From NCBI GenBank assembly GCA_010015805.1, contig ML978123.1:1364001-1428000 (forward strand): a stretch of 64,000 nt of DNA, given 5' to 3'. The position numbers and the translations under genes were made by a program. The first letter of the stretch is position 1, and every line of letters starts with the position of its first letter. The DNA is from Rhizodiscina lignyota. Lineage: Eukaryota. Shown here piece after piece: positions 3,470 to 64,000 of the stretch. The notes beneath the pieces were generated by a model, which saw only the letters and a program-made list of their open reading frames with translations, did no database searches and had not been told where the DNA came from.

Positions 3470-6400
3470 ATGGACACCATGGAGTCGCCCGGCGTCTTTC
3501 CAGACAGTCCAATGGACGACCCTGAGCAGACCTACTTCTGCAAAGGTTGCGGCGAGGTAAGAAATCGGGGCCGTTCCATACCAGCGATCCGTTGCACGCT
3601 GCGCCGTTCACATGGCTAACCGATACCCCACAGATCTTGGAGGAAGGCAAAGCATTCGAACTAGGTACGTTCATAGCGTTGTTGTTGACGTTTTCCCATT
3701 TAGAGACAGCAATACACTCCCCATTCACGTGGCTTTATTTACTACTACAATAGCTAACACCATCACCCTAGCCGGCAACCGCTGGCACATCGATTGTTTC
3801 CGATGCAATACTTGCAAGACCCTTCTCGATTCCGACGCCAACCTGCTCCTCCTCGGTGACGGCTCGCTTATCTGCAACAACTGCACATATTCCTGCAGCG
3901 CCTGCGGCAACAAGATCGAAGATCTGGCTATCCTAACGGGCGATCAAGCGTTCTGCGCAAACTGTTTCAAGTGCCGCAACTGCAAGCGAAAGATCGAGAA
4001 TCTGCGCTATGCACGGACCTCACAAGGCATCTTCTGCATGTCATGTCATGAGAGCCTGATGGCAAGAAGGCGGAAAAAGTCTAAGCAGAACAGATTGGCC
4101 TCCAACGGCGGCCCTGTCATATTGGACAAGAGTCTGCCTGCTCTACCACCAAACGCCGCAGCACAACCTGCCTTCGTGCCGACGCCTGAGACAGAAACGC
4201 CTCCAGAACTCTACTCCGAGACACCAAGCGATATGTCGCCTCGACCGAGAAACTCGAGGAAGAAAGATGCCAGCCTCAGCTCACAGACCAATCGTGATAA
4301 TTCTCCTTCTGAGACTGATGAGAGTCGGAAAGGTATGGATCTCTCCGTCTGTGGGCCCATCTTTACGGTAATAAGTGCTAACGTAAACCAGAAGAGAACG
4401 TGACTCTCCCTGCTAGCACGTATTCCGAGACTCGCCACTCCTACACTCCCTCACAAGCTACAGATGCGACTGTTGTTGGCGGCAGTGACGATGGGTTTTT
4501 CATTCCGCTCGCACTTGATCCGAATACTGCACCTGGACCTTCTCCTATGACCAAGGGTACCGCCTTCCCCGAACCTGCTCAAGTCACTCAGCCGAAACAA
4601 CCTGTAGAGGTAGAAATGCAGCCGAGGGACTATTTCAACAAGAACAGTAGTAGGTTACCATCCTCTTCCTCTCATCGAGAGGTTCTCAGAGAGAATGGTC
4701 GAGATACCTCACGTTCCTCATCTACAGAACGCTCGAAACGCGATGGTTCAAGCAATAGAGTGCCAGCAAGTCCGCACATTGCTTACCAACAAAAGGCCCG
4801 GCAGCCCTCGTCGGATTATATGGAAGCACGTCCACGCAAGGAGGTGATTCCAGACGCTTCTCCTGCTCTGAATGAGAGAGGCCTTCAGTCTCAGAGTTCA
4901 TCAACATATACATCTCAGGCAACGAGTCCCGCCGAGTTCAAGTTGCAGGATGCACCAAAAACCCGCAAGGGCAGCGTGTCGAGGAAGCTCTCCAAGCCAA
5001 ATCCGCGGGCTGTCAGTGCAGGTTCTCCCTCAATTGATATGAGAAGCCAAGATGTTGAGGTTCCAGCGGCCACTTCTCCGGCGTCTCTGGATACATCGCC
5101 CCTTCCGCCTATGGAGAACCAACAACAGGTAGAGCGACCAACTCGAGGTGATTCACTTGAGCGACCAGCACGCGGTGACTCTTTAGGTCATGGTACGCAC
5201 CGGCAGCCTTTTGCGCGGAAAGATATTGGCAGCAACTCAACTGGACCTTCCACACCAACAATGTCCAGTCAAGCGGCCCACGAGCGTAACACCTCAACCT
5301 CATCCGCTCCGCGGAACGAAGGAGGCCCGTTTCAACAGCTTAACGGAGGCAAAACAATCTCTAAACCCAACGAATCTCCAATTTCAAAGAGCATCCTTGA
5401 TGTTCCAGCCTTGCCTATTCGTTCTACTAGCCGTCCGAGTCCACTTCCAACAGGTGAATCTTTTACTGCACCACGCGCGCCTCCCCCACCTCCTGCACTT
5501 CCCGCACCGCCTGCACCGCCTGCACCGCCCGCGCCACCAGCACCACCAGCACCTCCCATAGGCGATCGCCACAAGACGAGCGAGTCAGTGAGCACTGTTC
5601 AGAGCAATATGTCGGCACAACTTTCTCCAGCACTGCCACGCTATCATGGAGGCGACTTCACGATGGAAGAAGAGATGGGACGCATACTCAAGGGGGAACA
5701 AATTGAAGACAAGGACTCGAATGTGCTGCGCCGCGTTTCTAATGCTGCAAAACACATGCGGAGCTTCAGCGATCGCGGAGGTCAGACGACGAAGACGACG
5801 CACAAGTTTGTCAGGAGTCCGAGCGTCACGAACGGCAGCATCGATATCAGCAGTCCAACGACGAGCCTCAGTCCAGATTCCAGAGATGATGCTGCATTGC
5901 TGAGGAGCAAGTTGATGAGGGCTCATGAGCAAATTGCCATGCTGAAGACCGAAAAGGGCAATCTGGAAAACATTGTTAACAGCAATCAGAACATGACTGC
6001 TGTGAACAAAGCACTCAAGGAAAAGAGAAACACCATGGCTTTCCTGGACACCCAGCGAGAAATCATGGTCCGCGAATTGGAAGCGATGACCGAGAATCTG
6101 AAGAGGGTAAAGGAGGGCAACGAGCCGCTGGATATGTTGAGCCTGAAGTCAGATATCATACTTGACTTCAAAAGGAGTCTCGAGCGGGTGAAAGAGGAAG
6201 TCGGCGCGGAGATTGAACACCTGATCAGTGAGCGCAACAAACTGACAAACGAAATCGGCGATCTTATCCAAATGAAAGACAAAGGCATGCAAGAATACGA
6301 AGATCTGAGTTTGCAGAACCAGCAGCTCATCCAGACTCACAACGACTTAGTCCACAAGATCCAAGATTTGTACAAGTCGAACTCGAACAGGCGTGCAGCC

Positions 6401-27644: not shown

Positions 27645-29674
27645 TTAAAAGAGGATCTTTAGCACAGATCCACGAGCAGCAATATGAAGACACTTTCGCT
27701 CATCCAAAGTATGAGTGGTTTCGCCTTCTAACAATTCTCCATTTACAACAGACGTGCCCTGATGTCCTTGCAATTTCTCCACCTCTTCGGCTGTGAGCCA
27801 TTCTATGCCATACGAAAGTCGTCTGAGGGTATTACGAGGCTTGTGTACCGTTGTCTCCGTCGAATAGTCAATCAAAACCTCCAGAGGGCCCGCGACGTAG
27901 GATCGTGAAGCTGTTTCGGCTGCTATACACCTTCGTAGCAATTGGCCTTGGACTAGTTCGTGGCCGTAGAGTATGCTCGTTGCCGATGCGCCTGTATCTG
28001 ATCCAACAGAAGCAGCTTGCGACCCACAATGAGTGAGCACTTCCTCATCTTCTGTTGCTAACGTGACAAGATGTTCTATTCGTCCTGAAGAGTCAGTCGA
28101 AACTGTAAAGGCTGATGTTCCGGAACAAGTGGATGATGAAACTTGGCTTTTTCTAGCAGCCGGGTCATTAGCCGTTTGCAGCTCCATCACCTCCGTTTGT
28201 CCTTTAGTTACTGGTGGTAGTCCGTCCTGCAGTGTAGAAACAGACCCAGGAAGCGTAAGTAGTGTGCTCTCATTTGGATACGGGTGAATAGTCTTTTGAC
28301 GTCTCGAACGAAGGGCCGTGAGACTGAGCTTGATATGACTTTCCAGTACCTTGTTGAACTGCTGCTCTGTGTTGAAGAGCTTCGGTAGAAATGGTAGCTG
28401 CCATCCAGGGTACAATCTTCCATGGTGTCGTGGCATGTGCATCTTTCCATGCGCAAGGATGAAAGCATTGCAAAGGAAGCAAGCGTCCTTGCTCGAGCAG
28501 ATAACTCGGGCTGGCACATTAGTGTAGTTCGATTCCGTGTAAAAGAGGAGCTGAATCTCTGCGTGGATCTTTGACTCATTCTGTGTCTTCCTCATCTGCT
28601 CTGCAAATTGTTCACTTGCTTCCGGCCGAGTTATTCCCAAAACTCGAGAGATGTGCTCAATATGCTGTTCTGAACTACCTTTTGATATTCTCGATATTGT
28701 AGAATGGAGCGTCGAAGTACATTTGCCGTTTGCAACACTTCGAAATGCCTCTTGAGGAAGATTGGCGAGAACGACATTTAGCTTTCGGACCAATGGATAT
28801 TTCTTCGCTGTGCTATAAAGAAATTTTGCCGCTTCTCGGTATCTCGCAACTTTTCCGGTAATGTTTAAAAGATTTCTCCTCGAACTCGGATCCATGAAGC
28901 GGTTCGGTATAGCACTGAGCAGGGTGGGAAGTTCTCGCAGTTGCCACAAGTAGAATATCCCTTCGACCAACTTCCCTAAGCCGACTGTCGTTCGGTACTT
29001 CGCCCATAAGTCAACTAGCTTTATCACTTCTTTGGCTCTCTCCTTGAAATTTTGCGCGACGTGGGACATTTTCCTAGAATGGTGGCTATTGAGCTGTTCG
29101 ATTGCATCCAAAGCCTTTTGAAGAACAGGCTGAATAGGGGTTTTGAGCGTGCCTCCCTTCTTTCGGGCAATTCCTAGGCGGCAGAGAATTCGGGGTGAGC
29201 ACACTGAGATGATTGTGGCAAAAATGTCACTCTCAAGGTTCGTGTCATCAGTCTCTAGGCGAGATTGCTTAGCATCAGAAGAGCGTTAAGAATGAATAAC
29301 TCACCATCGGATACCCGAGACAGTACATCGAAGATTCCTTCTAAGCCCTGCTTGATTTCTCGTAGAATTTGACTTCCGTCTTCGAATGTAGCTTTGTTCA
29401 CGGCCAGTACAACGTTCAAGCGCGTCGACTTCTTGCATTCTTCTACACACACTGCAGGAATGTGGCTAGGATCATCTTTTATATTTGAAAGAAATGCGAG
29501 CGTGCCGGCTAGGCTACGTTCCCTCTTGAAAGACAAGGCATAAATGTTCTGACGAGATGTTGGGATATCAGCTGGATTGGACGAAGGTAGAGTGGGAACG
29601 GAGTGTAAGAGATGGAGAAGCGCAATATTCTCAGCGCTTGAAATTGCACAAGTAGGGGGGGTTTTTGGACTCAT
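27645..29674 (-). CDS. OTT_1508-like nucleic-acid/nucleotide deaminase-fold protein, intron 29255-29304
   Basis: Zn-deaminase motifs IHAEIQL, ICSSKDACFLC and HGRLYPGW. N-terminal ER.LAGTLAFL...IPAVCVEE...LAVN. A GTGAGT..GCTAAG..TAG intron joins the 169-aa and 519-aa ORFs in frame. Confidence 0.82.
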
Positions 29675-38662: not shown

Positions 38663-39115
38663 ATTGGTAAGATGGAGCAAAGAGAGTGAAGAGAAGCGAA
38701 GTGGTTTCATTCCCTAGCATAGCCATGTTAGTATCTGGTTTCCTAGAACATGTACTCCATCACCATGGTGTGCAGGAATTGCGACATCAATGTCTCCTCT
38801 GGCTCATTAGTCATGTCAGGTCAGGTACCTTGACTTCAAAGTACGAACGATGCAAGCTCGAGGCTGAAAGCGGAAATGGACCACACCCGCCTGGCTAGCG
38901 TAAGAGTGACGTACCCAAGGATGTCGTCCGGAACCGATCGTCAGGTCGCACCAAGACTGGCCAAAACGCGGTTCGCGACCCGCACCCGCATATCCATAAA
39001 CATCTCCACTTTCCCATTTCTCAATTCAATTCTCCCATTCCTTCCTCCGCGTTTCCCCTGTCCATGTCCATTCTAATTGCCGTGCATTCCCCAATTTCCT
39101 TTTAAATCGTTCAAA

Positions 39116-40271
39116 ATGCCTCACTTACCCAAGGCTGGCCCGGACACCGGCGTCTTCTCCACGCTCGAGGTGCGCCCGCGTAACAAGCCAGCGAAGCTCA
39201 CGTCCCGCAACATCGCGTTTCCCGCACACCACTACGATGAGGCGCCAAATGTCGCTGCGGGGTTTAAGATGCTGGATCTGAGCCACGAGGCGCCGATACG
39301 TGCCAATTTAGTGGGGAGTGATATGACGCCTGAGGGGTTCAAGATCCTGTTCGAGACGTGGGGAGGCGGGAAGCTATACGCGGCCGAAGCACAATGGATT
39401 GAGCACAAGAGAGGGGCAAAGGAATGCTTCTTTGGTGTATGACCCCTCTTTCGACCCCTCTTCACCCCTCTCAGCGCACTCAATCACTACAATTGGACCA
39501 CCATGACTAACAAACATTGACTTCGAACAGCAATTCGACACACGCGACATGCGCCGCAACCGCAAACTCCAGTCCGACGCGGCTTCCACCAGCTCCTCCT
39601 CCACCTCGCCAGAAGCGAATGGCACAGGCAACACCGCAAACAGCAACACGACCTCCCAAATCCGACAGCAGAACGCGAAGCGCCTCAAGTTCCCGCGGCC
39701 CTTTGACGAGCCGCCACAGGTCATCTGCTGGCTCAACCGCATCGACATGGCGTCTGGGGACGAGCGAAACTGGCGCGTCAGCGCACACGCGAGCCGCATC
39801 ACGCCGCAGGGCTTCGTAGGACACCTGGACGCGTGGGGAGACACGGAGCTCGAAGGCGCGGCGATGTGCTGGATCGCATTTCCGAGGCACAAGAGGAAGG
39901 TTGCGAGCGGCACGTTCGGCACGAGCGATGTCAGGCCGTGGCATGATCCGCGGCAGAGAAATCGCGGGCGGGTCAAGTTTGAGGAGGGGGCATTTGAGAA
40001 GCCGCCGACGGTGCTCGTGGCGCTGAATATGATCGATATGGCAGGCAATGCTGATTTGAGGGTGAAGGTTTGGGTGGAGGAGGTGGATAAGGATGGGTTC
40101 AGTAAGTCTTGATATTCCCCTTCTTCATTTCTGCCCCTTAGACATGAGCATTTGACATGCTTGCCGGGAGGTGGATGCTGATGAGCGTGTGCAGCGTGGC
40201 ATCTCGATACCTGGGACGATTCGACGATGTACGGCGCTGCGGCGAGTTGGATCGCGCTGGGCTTCGTATGA
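39116..40271 (+). CDS. Protein of three tandem H-type lectin domains, 2 introns
   Basis: Exons 39116-39436, 39531-40101 and 40195-40271. Repeated G.F.T...F...F..PP.V...L..D......R.......GF....TWgd...Y.A...WI pattern. No signal peptide. Confidence 0.82.
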
Positions 40272-57110: not shown

Positions 57111-58694
57111 ATGCAGGAAGACGATTCAGCATTAATCTCTGGCTTTGGTGACTCGGACAGCAGCTCATACGAAGAAAGCAGAAGCAATGGCTCCAGAAAG
57201 AGGCGGAAGCTGTCCCAAGATGAAGTCGACACCTCAAACTCACAGCGCTCGGCCATGTCTACATCCACTGAATCTCGGGTAAAGATGAAGAAAAATGGTC
57301 TCCTCGATCCAATGCAGACTGCAAACACTGTCCAAGAGAAGTCTACCTTTGCAGACTTAGGAGTGTCGCCATGGCTCGTCATGTCTCTCGCGGCGATGGC
57401 CATCAAACGACCCACTGGAATTCAAAAGGGATGTATACCCGAAATATTGAAGGGTCGAGATTGCATAGGCGGAAGCCGTACCGGATCTGGCAAAACGGTT
57501 GCGTTTGCGGTCCCGATATTGCAGAAATGGTCGGAGGACCCGGTTGGGATCTTTGCGGTGGTATTGACTCCCACAAGGTGAGCTATGCCACCCTTTATGG
57601 CCTACTCGGTTCCAATTGGCTCACATGCTTGCAGAGAACTCGCTCTTCAAATCTTTGAACAGTTCAAAGCGATATCCGCCCCGCAGTCCCTGAAACCCAT
57701 CCTAGTCACCGGTGGTGCCGATATGCGAGCTCAGGCACTCGAGCTATCTCGTCGTCCACACGTAGTCATCGCAACTCCTGGCCGACTTGCCGATCACATC
57801 AATGTCTCTGGTGAAGACACAATTTGCGGCCTTCGTCGGGTTCGATTCGTTGTCCTCGACGAAGCCGATCGCCTCCTCGAAGCAGGCCATGGGAGCATGC
57901 TTCCGGACGTTGAAACTTGTCTAGGTGTGCTTCCACCTGCCGCTGAGCGACAGACTTGTCTATTCACGGCCACTGTGACAGACGAAGTTCGTGCGTTGAA
58001 AGAGATGCCGCGCGCTAAGGGAAAGCCTCCGGTCTTCGTGTGCGAGGTCGACACGGATGTCCTGGCTATACCAGCAACACTGAAGCAGATGTATCTGCAG
58101 GTCCCGTTGACACATCGTGAATCCTTTCTACACATCTTACTACTCACCCCGAGAAATTTGGAGAAATCACTCATCATTTTTTGCAATCGGACAGCCACAG
58201 CAACGCTCCTCGAACGAATGCTGAGAATACTGGAGCACCGAGTGACAGCGCTTCATTCTGGGCTCTCGCAGCCGCTTCGGACTGCAAACCTCGCTCGATT
58301 CAGAGCGAAAGCTGCAAGGATATTGGTAGCAACGGACGTCGCGTCCAGAGGCCTCGACATCCCCGAAGTCGACCTCGTCATCAATTACGATGTTCCAAGG
58401 GATCCGGACGATTATATCCATCGCGTCGGTCGTACGGCGCGTGCAGGAAGAAAGGGCGATGCTGTTACCATGGTGGGGCAGAGAGATGTAGAGTTACTGC
58501 TCGCCATCGAAAGTCGAGTTGGGAGAAAGATGGAAGAGTACTATGAAGAGGGTGTCAATATCGAAACCAGGGTACTCAGGGATGGACTGAAGGTCGTAGC
58601 GAAGGCAAAGCGAGAAGCGGAATTGGACATTGACGAGGGTAGAGATGCGGCCGGGAAACGGAAGCTGGGGATGAAGAAGATGGCAAAGTCGTAG
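57111..58694 (+). CDS. DBP8: DEAD-box RNA helicase Dbp8 (18S rRNA maturation), 1 intron
   Basis: [15 protein letters not shown] across the intron (57578-57634), [30 protein letters not shown]. Start may alternatively be 57081. Confidence 0.9.
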
Positions 58695-59032
58695 CAATAA
58701 CTGACGCGGCTCACAAGGCTTGCGAACATGACTTCCGTATTTCCACACCGGCGGAATCGCAAGATCCATTGTTGCATTGTGGCCAGTCTCTACAAATGGT
58801 GGCTACCAAATTAGGAACCACAAGTAGTCGTATATTATGAGGCAACAGCTCCAGTTGTACCGATCACAGGCTCTCCCATGAGCGATGAAGCATGCGCAGA
58901 CGTCCATTGAATCGCTATCGGGGCTAGATCGGTTATATCCCTGACTTCGAGAAGGCCATTCTTGTGCTTGGACCGAGCTTGATCGATGTGTACATACATA
59001 ACAGAAGGTTCGGCATCAAATTTGACGACACA

Positions 59033-59250
59033 GTTTAAACTTCAATAAGCGGAGGAAATAAATCAACAAAATTATCTCAATAACGGGAAGCGAAATAGCA
59101 ACAGCATAAATCTGCAATCTGGCTTTGCCCGAGTTGTAACTGCAGAGGCAGCTTTGGAGTCGTCAATGGCCCAAAGTTCCTTAGAACAGGACGTCACAGA
59201 GGGTAGGAATACCGTACGCGACTGGGTGTCTTATTCGTGTATATAACTTT
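59033..59250 (+). pseudogene. Degenerate dispersed fragment of the 5' end of 28S/LSU rRNA
   Basis: Colinear blocks TCAATAAGCGGAGGAAA, AATCTGGC, CCCGAGTTGTAA, AAGTTCCTT(A)GAACAGGACGTCACAGAGGGT and CCGTACG match the known fungal LSU 5'/D1 region, with many substitutions between them. Confidence 0.85.
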
Positions 59251-59421
59251 TGATTTCTCTAAATGATCAAATTTGACGAGTTTTTCGGCTCTAGATGATA
59301 GTTGCTAACCTCCCTAATCCAGCCCGAACGCCTCGCGGAGCCATTTAATCGCTAGTATCGACCCAAGCATCCTCCGATACCGGACCATCTTTAGAGGGTG
59401 GAGACAGGGCTGTAGAGCTGA

Positions 59422-59700
59422 TTATTTCGATGTCGGCCGTGTGTGCAGCACTGACAAATATGATGGTGGTTTTGTCGCTGACGGCTCGGCTCCGGAACCG
59501 GACTTCGCGGATTCAGGGATTGGTCTTGTATGAAGTTTGTCGAACATCGACGGCGTCGGTCTTGTGTGGAGTTTGTCGAACAGCGATGGCATCGGTCTTG
59601 TGTGGAGTTTGTCGAACATCGACGGCATCGGTCTTGTATGCAGGCTGTCGAAGATTGAAGACATTTGTCGCGAGGGTAGAGAGTCGAAAGTTGATGGCAT
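59422..59700 (-). CDS. 92-aa microprotein made of 12-aa tandem repeats (xPSxFDxLHTRP)
   Basis: CACAATG start context, CA-rich leader and CT-rich upstream tract; synonymous variation among repeats. Confidence 0.6.
   Translation of the reverse strand: MPSTFDSLPSRQMSSIFDSLHTRPMPSMFDKLHTRPMPSLFDKLHTRPTPSMFDKLHTRPIPESAKSGSGAEPSATKPPSYLSVLHTRPTSK
59521..59700. repeat. 36-bp minisatellite, five copies
   Basis: Units 59521-59556, 59557-59592, 59593-59628, 59629-59664 and 59665-59700; core GGTCTTGTGTGGAGTTTGTCGAACA. Confidence 0.9.
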
Positions 59701-59981
59701 TGTGATAGTTGATGATGTTGATGAAAGTTGATGGTGTTTGTATATGATGGTTCAACAATGTTTGCATCTGGTGAAGACAGAAAGAGGAAGAGAAGGTGGA
59801 GATGAGGAGGTAAATGTACCTGATATTTGGCGCTAGGCGTTAAAAATTCGCCGTTGGGACGGAGGTAAACCATGAAGTCACCGTTTAAACATTGCCCAAT
59901 CTCACTCACGCGATTTCGACCACAGCAAACCGGATAAGGTGGATTTCTTCGTTGTTGACTACTAATTAATAAATAGGGTCT

Positions 59982-61822
59982 TTACACGAGCACGTAAAGT
60001 GCACACATCTATTTTATGACTGTAAGCAGCGTGCGGATTCGAGGGAGTGGGTGGACAAACCATTGATAGACCCAGGATCATTGAACACCAGAATAGAATG
60101 TTCTGCAAACCCCAATGTCAGTATGAGCCTCAGAAATAATGGAGCCTGTCCCGGATCTTACATTGAGGAGTGTTCTTCCCTTAACCCAACGGCTCCGCTG
60201 TATCATGACAATCGGCATCTGAAGCATCATTGCAAAGAACCCATAGCCTCGCAACTTCTTAGTAATGCAACCCATGACCAATTCGTGCGCCAGTGCCGAT
60301 ATAAAGAAGGTGATGACAGTTGCGACGGGTCGAGACATTTTCCCACGCGAAGCGGAGTACACATGACGGCGGAAGAAGTTATGTACTGGAATGTTCCACT
60401 CCCGCGAGAATTCGAGCCAGTCACAACTATTCCACCAGTCGGCGTAGAACTGGCGGTCAGCAAAATGGGTGATCTCCGCAAAGGCCCCGCATATGTACTC
60501 GAAAATGACCAGGAAGACGAGTAAGAAAGATACCATGAACGGGAAGAGCAGTCGGCTGATTGTCTCAGCAAGAATCAAGGCGCCTTCGACGATACTATCG
60601 ACATCCTGCATTTGATGAGATGATTCTCGAAGAACGGGAATGATAAACTCCTCGCTGGTGACCGTGAGTAGGAAGATACACCCGAAAACAGCCAGGCTCT
60701 TGTAGAAGAGTTCTCCCCAATCCGTGCCGCTAGTGCGTGGATATTCGAGCTCGTAGCATAATGTTGGGCAGAACAAGAAGTCAACGAAATTCCGAATGGT
60801 CAAATTATTCGGATACGTAACCTGACCAAGAGGAGAAGTTAGCTCGAACGCAAGCGCTTCGCGGAGATCGTTAAGTTCAGTGTCGTCCGATCCAGGTTTA
60901 TCCTCATGGTCGTTATCCTGTAATCGACTACGCGGATTTGGATACCTGACAGGCGCGGCCTTAGAAGCGGTCTCAGGTTTATCCAACGCGTTCAGTCTCC
61001 GTCGCGTCTCCGAAAGATGGCCATTATAGAATGCATACGAATGCATTTTCATGAATAAAGACAGAATGTGGAGCGTGAAGAATACTTGAGCGGTCCATGT
61101 CCAGGTTCGGATGAAAGGCCACCTGTATGAAATCAGAAATACTCTTCTCCTGGCTTTCTCGTTCAACTTACCCAATCCAGTATAGCAGCCATGCTGCTTG
61201 ATAAAGACTTTGGATCGGCATTCCCATTCTACTCCAGCGCAATATGCCATTGCTGTTTGCAAACACCAGATGCAATGGAAGCGCGACCACAGTGCTGCCA
61301 GCCATGAGGAGGTCGCTGAGCGCAAGCTCCCACAAGTTCTCGGTAAACAAATGCCATTGACGAATTATCAGAAATGATCCGCTCTCTCTGAAGTTGCGAA
61401 GCATCGCGGTAATAACCATAATCGCTAGGCCAATCCAGAATAGAACGAAAAATCCTCGGAAATCGTGATGCTCGCTGTTAGGATCAAAATGCGAGACGCG
61501 GGCTGTATACTCTATCGTGGGAAAGAGACGGTGTTTTTGCTGAGCACGAATCTGGCGCCTTGCAGAAGAGGTCGCCTTTACCGAAGGCGGCGCATCCGCA
61601 GGAATTGGTGTATTGCGCCCACTGCATGTCGTTAATACCTTATCTGTGTTTTGAGGTACCTTAGACTTTCCTTGAAACGCCAGTTTCTGGTGTCTTAGAT
61701 GCGCCATTGGGAAATGATAGCTGGTCCTCACTAAGAGTTCTAAGTAGCTGCGAACTTTGAGGCTTTCGTGCTCTAGGCGCCAAATACTCTGGCTGGGGAT
61801 CTGTTGCACTCGACGTCGACAT
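59982..61822 (-). CDS. ARE2: Sterol O-acyltransferase (MBOAT, Are1/Are2 type), 4 introns
   Basis: RVSHFDP..DFRGFFVLFW, MKMHSYAFYN, FADRQFYADWWN, EFSREWNIPVH, SALAHE; C-terminus MCALYVLV. First intron probably GA-AG. Confidence 0.9.
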
Positions 61823-62283
61823 CCTTGATACCGAAGGTGATGTAACTTTTAGATTCAATGCTAAGGAGGTTGTGCAATGAATGACGTAGTCCACTGTCCC
61901 AGACGGGCTTTGAAACTAGTTTCACATTATATCTGGTACGACCGCTGTTCTCTCCAGGTCGAGAAGGGGTTGATAAATATCTGAGGAAGGCTATTTCGAG
62001 GTATAAAAGGATTTGCCTCATGTTCGATCGACGCTACGCTAGTCTAAAAAAAGAAGTGGCGGTGCTGTTGTGGCTTGATCTCACCCGCAGATTAAGTCTC
62101 GGGCGGTGGAATTATTTTCCGCGGTGATCTTCTCGATGCTGAAGCCGACTTTCATGGTGGTGAAAGAACATGGGAAGGAGATTGGCTTCTTTACCATGAG
62201 ACCATACAGAGTCCTTTTTCTCTGTTACTGCCTTCCTTGAACTATTTCCGAAGTCGTGCTTGGGGTCCTTTGAGACCGCCAAC

Positions 62284-64000
62284 ATGACGAGCCGTAAGCA
62301 GCAGCGCCTTTGACAGCTTTCTCTCATGAGCGACCCACTAACTTTTACTTGGGATGCAGTCAAGCAATTCATTCGCAATGTGCGCGCGGCAAAAACGATT
62401 GCGGATGAGAGAGCAGTCGTTCAGAAAGAGAGCGCTGCCATTCGAGCGAGCTTCAGGGAGGAGAGTCATGATTCAGGTGTCAGGTACGCCATTTTCTCAA
62501 ATCACTGGCAGAGCAGCTACTGATTTTCTGGCAGGCGAAACAATGTCGCGAAGCTGCTTTACCTCTTCACACTCGGCGAACGTACACATTTTGGCCAGAT
62601 AGAATGTTTGAAGCTGCTTGCCTCACCGCGCTTCGCGGATAAGCGGTTAGGATATTTGGGGACTATGCTACTGCTGGATGAGAACCAGGAAGTGCTGACA
62701 CTTGTCACAAACTCCTTGAAAAAGTAAGTGGACTTCTTCGTACGCTGAGGATACGTAGCCTGATGATATGGCCTTGAACAGTGACCTCAACCATTCAAAT
62801 CAATACATCGTCGGTCTCGCCCTCGTCACCCTCGGTAACATTGCTTCGGTCGAAATGTCCCGCGACCTATTCCCCGAAGTTGAGACAATCTTATCTTCCT
62901 CCAACCCATACGTGAGACGAAAGGCTGCCTTATGCGCTATGCGCATTTGTCGCAAGGTCCCTGACCTCCAAGAGCATTTCCTCGAGAAGGCAAAACTCCT
63001 TGTTGCAGACAGGAATCATGGCGTCTTACTTTGTGGCCTGACACTTGTGGGAAGCATGTGTGAAGCGGATGATGCCGAGGGCGGCGAAATGGGAACTGTC
63101 GAAGTGTTTCGACCACTGGTCCCAGCTCTCGTAAAGACTCTGAAGAGTTTGTCAAGCTCGGGCTATGCGCCAGAGCATGACGTTACTGGAATCACAGATC
63201 CATTTTTGCAAGTCAAGATTCTGAGACTCTTGCGAGTCCTGGGACGAGGGGACCAAGAAACAAGCGAACAGATCAACGACATCCTAGCACAAGTCGCCAC
63301 GAATACAGACTCCTCTAAAAATGTCGGCAACTCTATTCTTTACGAGTCCGTTCTTACAATTCTCGACATTGAAGCAGACTCCGGCTTACGGGTTCTTGGT
63401 GTAAACATCCTTGGAAAATTTCTTTCGAACCGCGACAACAACATTCGATATGTCGCTCTCAATACACTCATAAAGGTCGTCGCAATCGAGCCTAATGCCG
63501 TGCAGAGGCATAGAAATACCATTCTGGACTGTCTCAGGGATCCTGACATTAGCATTAGGCGGAGGGCGCTGGATTTGAGTTTCACCCTTATCAATGAAAG
63601 TAATGTCAGGGTTCTCATTAGAGAGTTGCTTGCATTCCTCGAGGTTGCAGACAACGAATTCAAACCGACCATGACGAGTCAAATCGGGATTGCGGCTGAT
63701 CGATTTGCGCCAAACAAGCGGTGGCATGTTGACACAATGCTCAGAGTCCTCAAATTGGTATATACAGTGGCTGCCTAAACAGTTTTTCAGGATGGCTTAC
63801 ATTTTTCAGGCCGGTAATTATGTCAAGGAACAAATCTTGTCATCCTTCGTTCGCCTTATCGCTACTACCCCTGATCTACAGACATACTGCGTGCAGAAAT
63901 TGTACGCCAACCTCAAAGACGACATTACTCAAGAGGGCCTCACGCTTGCTGGCACATGGGTGATAGGGGAATTCGGCGATTCTCTTTTGCGTGGAGGAAG
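62284..64000 (+). CDS. APL4: AP-1 complex gamma adaptin, 5' part (runs off the window), several introns
   Basis: [32 protein letters not shown]...[12 protein letters not shown]...[18 protein letters not shown]...[26 protein letters not shown]. Confidence 0.95.

Follow-up and report, generated by a model that had tools for sequence, protein, structure and literature searches.

A candidate lineage-restricted gene for a small tandem-repeat protein in the fungus Rhizodiscina lignyota

Introduction

Four classes of fungal ribosomal peptide are recognised, namely MSDINs, borosins, dikaritins and epichloecyclins (PMC12912989). MSDIN precursors have 33–37 residues, with a conserved 10-residue leader, a single core of 6–10 residues and a 17-residue follower (PMC5159998). 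Prolyl oligopeptidase B (POPB) cleaves the precursor following a conserved Pro, and a second Pro is the site of transpeptidation (PMC5159998). Leaderless MSDIN precursors also exist in Amanita (PMC12912989). Kex2-processed repeat proteins (KEPs) are defined by an ER signal peptide and by units that are separated by KR, KK, RK or RR (PMC7329392).

Here, we describe a 92-codon ORF from a Dothideomycete that resembles each of these precursors in some respects and differs in others. We refer to the whole 64-kb stretch of DNA that was analysed as “the window”. Like KEP and ustiloxin-type (dikaritin) precursors, the ORF product is small and fungal, with at least three tandem units of at least eight residues that combine variable and fixed positions. 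Unlike KEPs, it has no signal-peptide-like segment and no dibasic Kex2 sites (0 in 92 residues); unlike dikaritin clusters, its 64-kb window has no DUF3328/UstYa gene. KEP membership is excluded, since both defining features (signal peptide and dibasic sites) were checked and neither was found, and the original prediction had likewise set the ORF apart from KEP/dikaritin precursors. Like MSDIN/cycloamanide precursors, the ORF has proline-bounded units and no signal peptide, and it starts directly with a unit, as do the leaderless MSDINs (PMC12912989). Unlike MSDINs, it has 92 residues and six tandem units, with no leader, follower or sequence similarity. MSDINs belong to the Agaricales, whereas the ORF comes from a Dothideomycete and has no POP (Peptidase_S9) gene in its window.

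Short linear motifs can also occur in tandem arrays, e.g., the repeated DPF/NPF motifs of endocytic adaptors and the Atg8-interacting motif [W/F/Y]xx[L/I/V]. Like disordered proteins with motif arrays, the ORF product gives a low-confidence structural model, is rich in Pro and Ser, and carries a hydrophobic-acidic motif at fixed spacing. Unlike such proteins, it has no acidic run before the aromatic residue of its units, and the patterns that it matches carry little information. A further comparison is with de novo or lineage-specific genes built by amplification of a short coding unit, of which codfish antifreeze glycoprotein genes are an example (PMC5850335). Like these genes, the ORF is made up almost wholly of a short unit amplified in tandem. 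It is likewise without homologues outside its lineage, and it lies where a conserved pair of genes meets variable sequence. Unlike the codfish genes, the ORF is known from sequence alone, and its nearest sequenced relative (77% MBOAT identity) is too distant for an ancestral comparison. In our view, the ORF is probably a gene restricted to its lineage, and its product a small, disordered protein of repeated motifs.

Organization of the ORF and its repeat array

The ORF and its parts are as follows:

59422..59700, minus strand: the 92-codon ORF (P0001), from its ATG at 59700 to its TAA stop at 59424-59422 (ORF list and translation)
59521..59700, minus strand: units U1–U5, 36 nt each, the core of a 36-nt tandem array (Tandem Repeats Finder and unit alignment)
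59700-59665, minus strand: U1
59664-59629, minus strand: U2
59628-59593, minus strand: U3
59592-59557, minus strand: U4
59556-59521, minus strand: U5
59470..59520, minus strand: a spacer of 51 nt (17 codons), rich in Ser, Gly, Ala and Pro, that preserves the frame from U5 to U6
59434..59469, minus strand: U6, PPSYLSVLHTRP, a sixth, partial unit with PPSY inside (comparison with U3)

After U6, the ORF ends with ACA TCG AAA TAA, i.e., TSK and the stop codon. This layout agrees with the original prediction of five exact 12-residue units, a spacer and a sixth degenerate unit, and the peptide units given there match the sequence. The prediction had extended the feature over 59422..59820; the ORF accounts for 59422-59700, and the 59820 end holds only if the leader and CT tract are included.

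Tandem Repeats Finder describes the array as having a period of 36, 3.6 copies and 88% matches. Its score of 199 is the highest among the seven Tandem Repeats Finder rows for the whole 64-kb window, in which the other four arrays all lie inside long ORFs. Within an 870-codon frame without a Pfam family, a 9/27-nt tandem repeat of the GCACCTCCC type is present in 10 copies (window 5466-5557, plus strand).

Positions 4 and 7 are variable between units. Several of the kept residues are encoded by alternative codons, and those listed in the original prediction are all correct (CAC/CAT for His, CTC/CTT/CTG for Leu, and AGA versus CGG for Arg). Three further cases were found: all four CTN codons are used for Leu, with CTA in U1; CGA is used for Arg, also in U1; and Ser is encoded by TCT in U1 and by AGC in U2. 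U6 retains the initial PS and the final LHTRP. The flanks that encode these residues are identical to those of U3 at 16/21 nt, as opposed to 2/12 nt in the middle (Fisher P = 0.0014), and the middle of U6 matches U3 at the random level. U1 and U6 have diverged by 14-15/36 nt, and there is no stop codon or frameshift across the 92 codons. The array is free of stop codons in all three minus-strand frames and in one plus-strand frame. Several open frames are expected of any stop-free 36-nt unit; hence, the length of the ORF alone is no evidence of coding. A contig assembled from DNA run X1 is identical over 58600-60200, but it probably derives from the source DNA itself and is therefore non-independent.

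Genomic context

Two genes flank the ORF:

59982..60008, minus strand: short terminal exon, with the TAA stop at 59984-59982, of an MBOAT (sterol O-acyltransferase) gene (exon model from splice-site reading, with two short introns)
57585..58694, plus strand: 3' exon of a DEAD-box helicase gene, convergent with the ORF, with its stop codon 727 nt past the ORF stop (ORF list and Pfam)

The MBOAT gene lies upstream on the same strand, with 281 nt between its stop codon and the ATG of the ORF. Its product is 100% identical over 312 residues to the public sterol O-acyltransferase 1 of Rhizodiscina lignyota (a Dothideomycete); the next best public matches have 77% identity. Pfam searches with the 144 window ORFs of at least 110 codons identified housekeeping genes (a kinase, LMBR1, ferric reductase, myotubularin, ribosomal protein S3, aldolase, adaptin and others). 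No Peptidase_S9, DUF3328, P450, methyltransferase or other tailoring gene was found among the 144 ORFs of the 64-kb window, which reaches just ~4 kb past the MBOAT gene on one side.

A scan of metagenome contigs with the MBOAT sequence yielded 80 loci with 54-76% identity. In 43/80 of these, MBOAT is accompanied by the N-terminal region of adaptin, in the same divergent arrangement as in the window (60078-63775), which indicates that the 80 loci are orthologous. The DEAD-box helicase is present in 0/80. The largest ORF downstream of MBOAT, in a sample of 14 loci, encodes a BAG-domain protein (4 loci), a DUF3074 protein (3), a product without a recognised family (4), or an acetyl-CoA synthetase, a sugar transporter or a PX protein (1 each). 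By this comparison, the ORF occupies the variable edge of a conserved adaptin-MBOAT pair.

Evidence for constraint on the encoded peptide

The foremost alternative to a coding function is that the array is a non-coding minisatellite, located in convergent intergenic sequence or in the MBOAT 3' UTR, that is stop-free by chance and that owes its third-position bias to chance and case selection. We regard this as unlikely, yet as an alternative to be taken seriously. The array could indeed lie in the MBOAT 3' UTR, given the 281 nt that separate it from a stop codon on the same strand, and the open frames of the array (three sense, one antisense) are in keeping with a non-coding origin.

The rate of amino-acid change between the units is harder to reconcile with a minisatellite. 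U1–U5 give a pN/pS of 0.28 when read as in the ORF (0.24 for U2–U5), as against 1.29 and 1.21 in the other two sense frames. Neutral evolution was simulated on a tree matched to the pairwise distances, with 10,000 replicates in each of six settings (kappa of 1, 2 or 5; two ancestors). Values of pN/pS at or below 0.285 arose in 0-0.05% of replicates, and in 0-0.09% of those that were stop-free. Similarly, the observed amino-acid identity (85/120 pairwise positions) was attained in 0-0.04% of neutral replicates. Two further features argue against a minisatellite, namely the presence of silent changes at the first codon position of Arg together with the TCT/AGC switch for Ser, and the position of U6, which is in frame and in which conservation is confined to PS and LHTRP.

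The distribution of changes among codon positions points in the same direction with less force. Column permutation, which makes fewer assumptions than simulation and is weaker, gave P values that refer to one chosen frame and are to be multiplied by three for three frames: P = 0.024 for parsimony changes (5/6/13 at the first, second and third positions), P = 0.007 for pairwise differences (20/23/53) and P = 0.007 for changes within U2–U5 (2/2/9). That these values are no lower before the three-frame correction speaks for a minisatellite, as does the codon usage of the ORF, which is not clearly gene-like. The codon-usage log-odds is +1.4 bits for the ORF and +10.4 for another frame of the array; reference chunks of the same size score 15.5 ± 8.3 when truly coding and -29.9 ± 16.3 when off-frame. 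Codon usage does not discriminate between coding and non-coding here.

Rfam searches (E up to 1) returned no family at threshold, and three weak matches, each below threshold and on the plus strand, were rejected. The predicted RNA fold of the array shows no gain in stability over shuffled controls (z = +0.56).

The signal of constraint at the peptide level is genuine, though it comes from little data, i.e., five short, non-independent units, an assumed tree and a locus picked for the same pattern as was tested. On balance, we favour the conclusion that the ORF is a translated gene under constraint, now or recently. The original prediction had claimed protein-level selection and had proposed a dN/dS-type comparison of the repeats. 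The frame-specific signature is borne out by that comparison, with pN/pS of 0.28 in the ORF frame only and 1.2-1.3 elsewhere; the argument from silent changes proved weaker than presented, given the column permutation (P = 0.007-0.024), the codon usage and the extension of the repeat outside the ORF (see below).

Searches for relatives

When the four open frames of the array are looked up by exact product, none occurs in a collection of 15 billion proteins that includes the annotated MBOAT neighbour, so the ORF is indeed unannotated, as had been predicted. The prediction had also recognised no family, and this too agrees with our searches of Pfam, of a word index, of representative proteins with phmmer and of the ESM Atlas, none of which found a homologue. 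A Pfam match to an ORF29-like family was rejected (E = 0.02; 15.2 bits versus a cut-off of 27). The word-indexed protein search gave 642 candidates, of which 0 scored, and the ESM Atlas gave no usable match.

Comparison with 1.84 billion representative proteins using phmmer gave 23 matches at E up to 0.001 (P0002-P0024). These were rejected as homologues on inspection of 16/23, which proved to be other tandem repeats, mostly with a period of 10-14 residues, that lack the unit. The inspected matches sit in unrelated proteins or in ORFs that are not protein-like, and the eight that were looked up are single-member clusters. Among the 16, the nearest motifs are LFDHGHTRP (P0019, with a period of 13-14 residues) and SMYDSLHVK (P0004). 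The phmmer E-values are inflated because repeats were aligned with repeats. With a short repeat as query, phmmer can give E-values down to 1e-31 for unrelated repeats of similar period, which calls for caution with repeat queries in general. Some of the matches share 5-7/9 motif residues by chance (P0019 and P0004).

Searches at the nucleotide level gave a similar picture. A scan of metagenome contigs with the ORF yielded 405 pattern matches, of which 0 were confirmed. In the 80 MBOAT loci, a six-frame motif search found isolated chance matches in 2 and no repeat, and tblastn with the ORF found no match (best E 1.6). Where a locus offers 600 nt or more of downstream sequence, no 36-nt array was found within 2.5 kb downstream of MBOAT; at least 1500 nt are available in 58/80. 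Peptide strings derived from the units were not found in the literature.

The lack of any homologue or annotated model in the protein collections searched is what a minisatellite would give. It is weak evidence all the same, since the nearest sequenced relative has just 77% MBOAT identity. At that distance, the lack of homologues says only that the gene, if it is one, is not ancient.

The start region

The sequence ahead of the ORF has the following features:

59701-59764, minus strand: a CA-rich leader ahead of the ATG (sequence)
~59770..59810, minus strand: a pyrimidine (CT) tract that precedes the CA-rich leader and may be a core-promoter feature (tract from sequence)
59702..59737, minus strand: U0, a decayed seventh unit within the leader (unit comparison)
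59765..59767, minus strand: an upstream ATG, with C at -3, that opens an 84-codon frame (59513-59767) overlapping the array in another frame (ORF list)

The ATG at 59700 is the first codon of U1 and has the context tcacaATG. The CACAATG context, the CA-rich leader and the CT tract of the original prediction are all present, and the fructose-bisphosphate aldolase gene of the window has an identical tcacaATG context, with a similar CT-rich upstream region. A start codon that falls exactly on the first unit, in the context of a highly expressed gene of the window (aldolase), argues against a minisatellite. The upstream ATG would intercept scanning ribosomes if the transcript begins above it; C at -3 makes for a weak start context under the usual start-context rules.

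U0 is identical to U1 at 18/36 nt, including an identical run of 12 nt, and by eye the matches fall mostly in its first 15 nt. In its 3' half, U0 consists of simple CATCAA-type repeats that do not resemble the units. The offset from U1 is 37 nt, not 36, which puts U0 in a different frame from the ORF. The frame opened by the upstream ATG reads TPSTF in U0 and differs from the main ORF by a single-base offset. The repeat thus also exists as a DNA-level entity that reaches past the ORF out of frame, as a minisatellite would be free to do. Points against the reading of the ORF as a gene include its lack of a homologue and of a public gene model, the open state of all of its sense frames, and the out-of-frame U0.

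U0 suggests another alternative, in which the ORF is the relic of a longer gene. The ancestral frame would have run from the ATG at 59767 through U0 into U1 until it was broken by a 1-nt change between the two units; the constraint would then be historical, and the ORF silent or decaying. The TPSTF in the upstream frame and the 37-nt spacing, where 36 nt would have been continuous, are the basis for this idea, and both the weak codon usage of the ORF and the lack of a gene model at the locus in the public protein set are consistent with it. However, the CATCAA-type 3' half of U0 bears no relation to the units, and U1 itself supplies a well-placed ATG. In addition, the 92 codons remain free of stops and frameshifts despite the divergence of U1 and U6, and the separately assembled run X1 contig has the same sequence, though maybe from the source DNA itself. 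We therefore consider a relic improbable.

The predicted product

The predicted product has 92 residues, ~10.3 kDa and a pI of 10.1, with 16 Ser, 14 Pro, 9 Thr, 0 Cys and 0 Trp. Its longest hydrophobic run is 2 residues, it has 0 dibasic sites, and its maximum Kyte-Doolittle value over 9 residues is 0.43, which leaves it without a signal-peptide-like h-region. U2–U6 each end in Pro, and four of U1–U5 have Pro as their second residue, with Pro at positions including 2, 24, 26, 36, 38, 48, 50, 60, 62 and 89. The single-sequence AlphaFold2 model has low confidence (pLDDT 61, pTM 0.14); in it, one helix of 5-9 residues covers x-F-D-x-L-H in each of U2–U6, and the rest is coil.

The pattern [W/F/Y]xx[L/I/V] is the core of the Atg8-interacting (LIR/AIM) motif, and PPSY is the core of a WW-binding motif. 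All six units match [FWY]xx[LIV] (FDSL twice, FDKL three times and YLSV), a pattern so short that chance matches are expected, with the U6 match displaced by one residue. The PPSY of U6 is likewise too short to carry weight.

The regular prolines also raise the prospect of a leaderless cytosolic precursor with multiple cores, from which a prolyl endopeptidase would free peptides of 10-12 residues (x-F-D-x-L-H-T-R-P), linear or cyclised, by amatoxin-like processing of tandem cores. This accords with the spacing of Pro, with the core-like repetition of units that vary at positions 4 and 7, and with the action of POPB at two prolines (PMC5159998) and with the leaderless MSDINs of Amanita (PMC12912989). 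Nevertheless, it is very improbable: the 144 window ORFs include no Peptidase_S9, P450, methyltransferase, DUF3328 or tailoring gene, the neighbours are housekeeping genes, there is no MSDIN leader or follower in a product of 92 residues versus 33-37, known fungal ribosomal peptides feature Cys, Trp or Tyr chemistry that is absent from the units (0 Cys, 0 Trp), and the known Pro-flanked family occurs in Agaricales, not Dothideomycetes. If such a precursor were confirmed, it would define a new class of fungal ribosomal peptide, with tandem cores and Pro-directed, secretion-independent processing. It would then be unlike the four recognised classes, i.e., MSDINs, borosins, dikaritins and epichloecyclins (PMC12912989).

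Proposed origin and function

We return to the reading of the ORF as a gene. A lineage-restricted small gene born from a minisatellite is the most likely object at this locus, and is a known kind of thing. The observations behind it are the anatomy of the ORF, its frame-specific excess of silent changes and its lack of a known family. In this scenario, the ORF would have grown by tandem duplication of the 36-nt unit, while selection on the peptide would have kept it in a single reading frame. Transcription would proceed from a promoter comprising the CT tract and the CA-rich leader, and translation would begin at the ATG at 59700. Since the product has no export signal, we propose that it is cytosolic or nuclear, and it is predicted to be largely disordered.

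Multivalent motif display appears to be the best-supported reading of the product's role; it and the multi-core precursor are the two roles put forward in the original prediction. Each unit may form a short amphipathic turn or helix (S-hydrophobic-F-D-x-L-H) between prolines, and, through avidity, the five to six copies could engage one partner at several sites or in several copies. The C-terminal unit might contribute its PPSY element. For the full proposal, i.e., a constrained, lineage-restricted gene whose product acts by motif display, we estimate a probability of roughly 40%, and we offer it tentatively.

If the gene is real, it is an unannotated gene, without a homologue in ~1.8 billion representative proteins, that consists almost wholly of an amplified 12-codon unit. 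It would then provide a compact case both for the conversion of a minisatellite into a coding gene and for the acquisition of function by a repeated motif. It would also mean that the internal pattern of silent changes in repeats can point to small genes missed by annotation pipelines. In practice, it would be one more taxonomically restricted small ORF from a little-studied fungus, and current views would be unchanged.

Other features of the window

Two further regions of the window encode recognisable domains. An OTT_1508-like deaminase domain (Pfam E = 5.8e-19) is the sole recognised domain of a 546-codon frame at 27648-29285 (minus strand). At 39077-40109 (plus strand), two adjacent frames contain H-type lectin domains, one of them with two copies (E = 8.6e-32).
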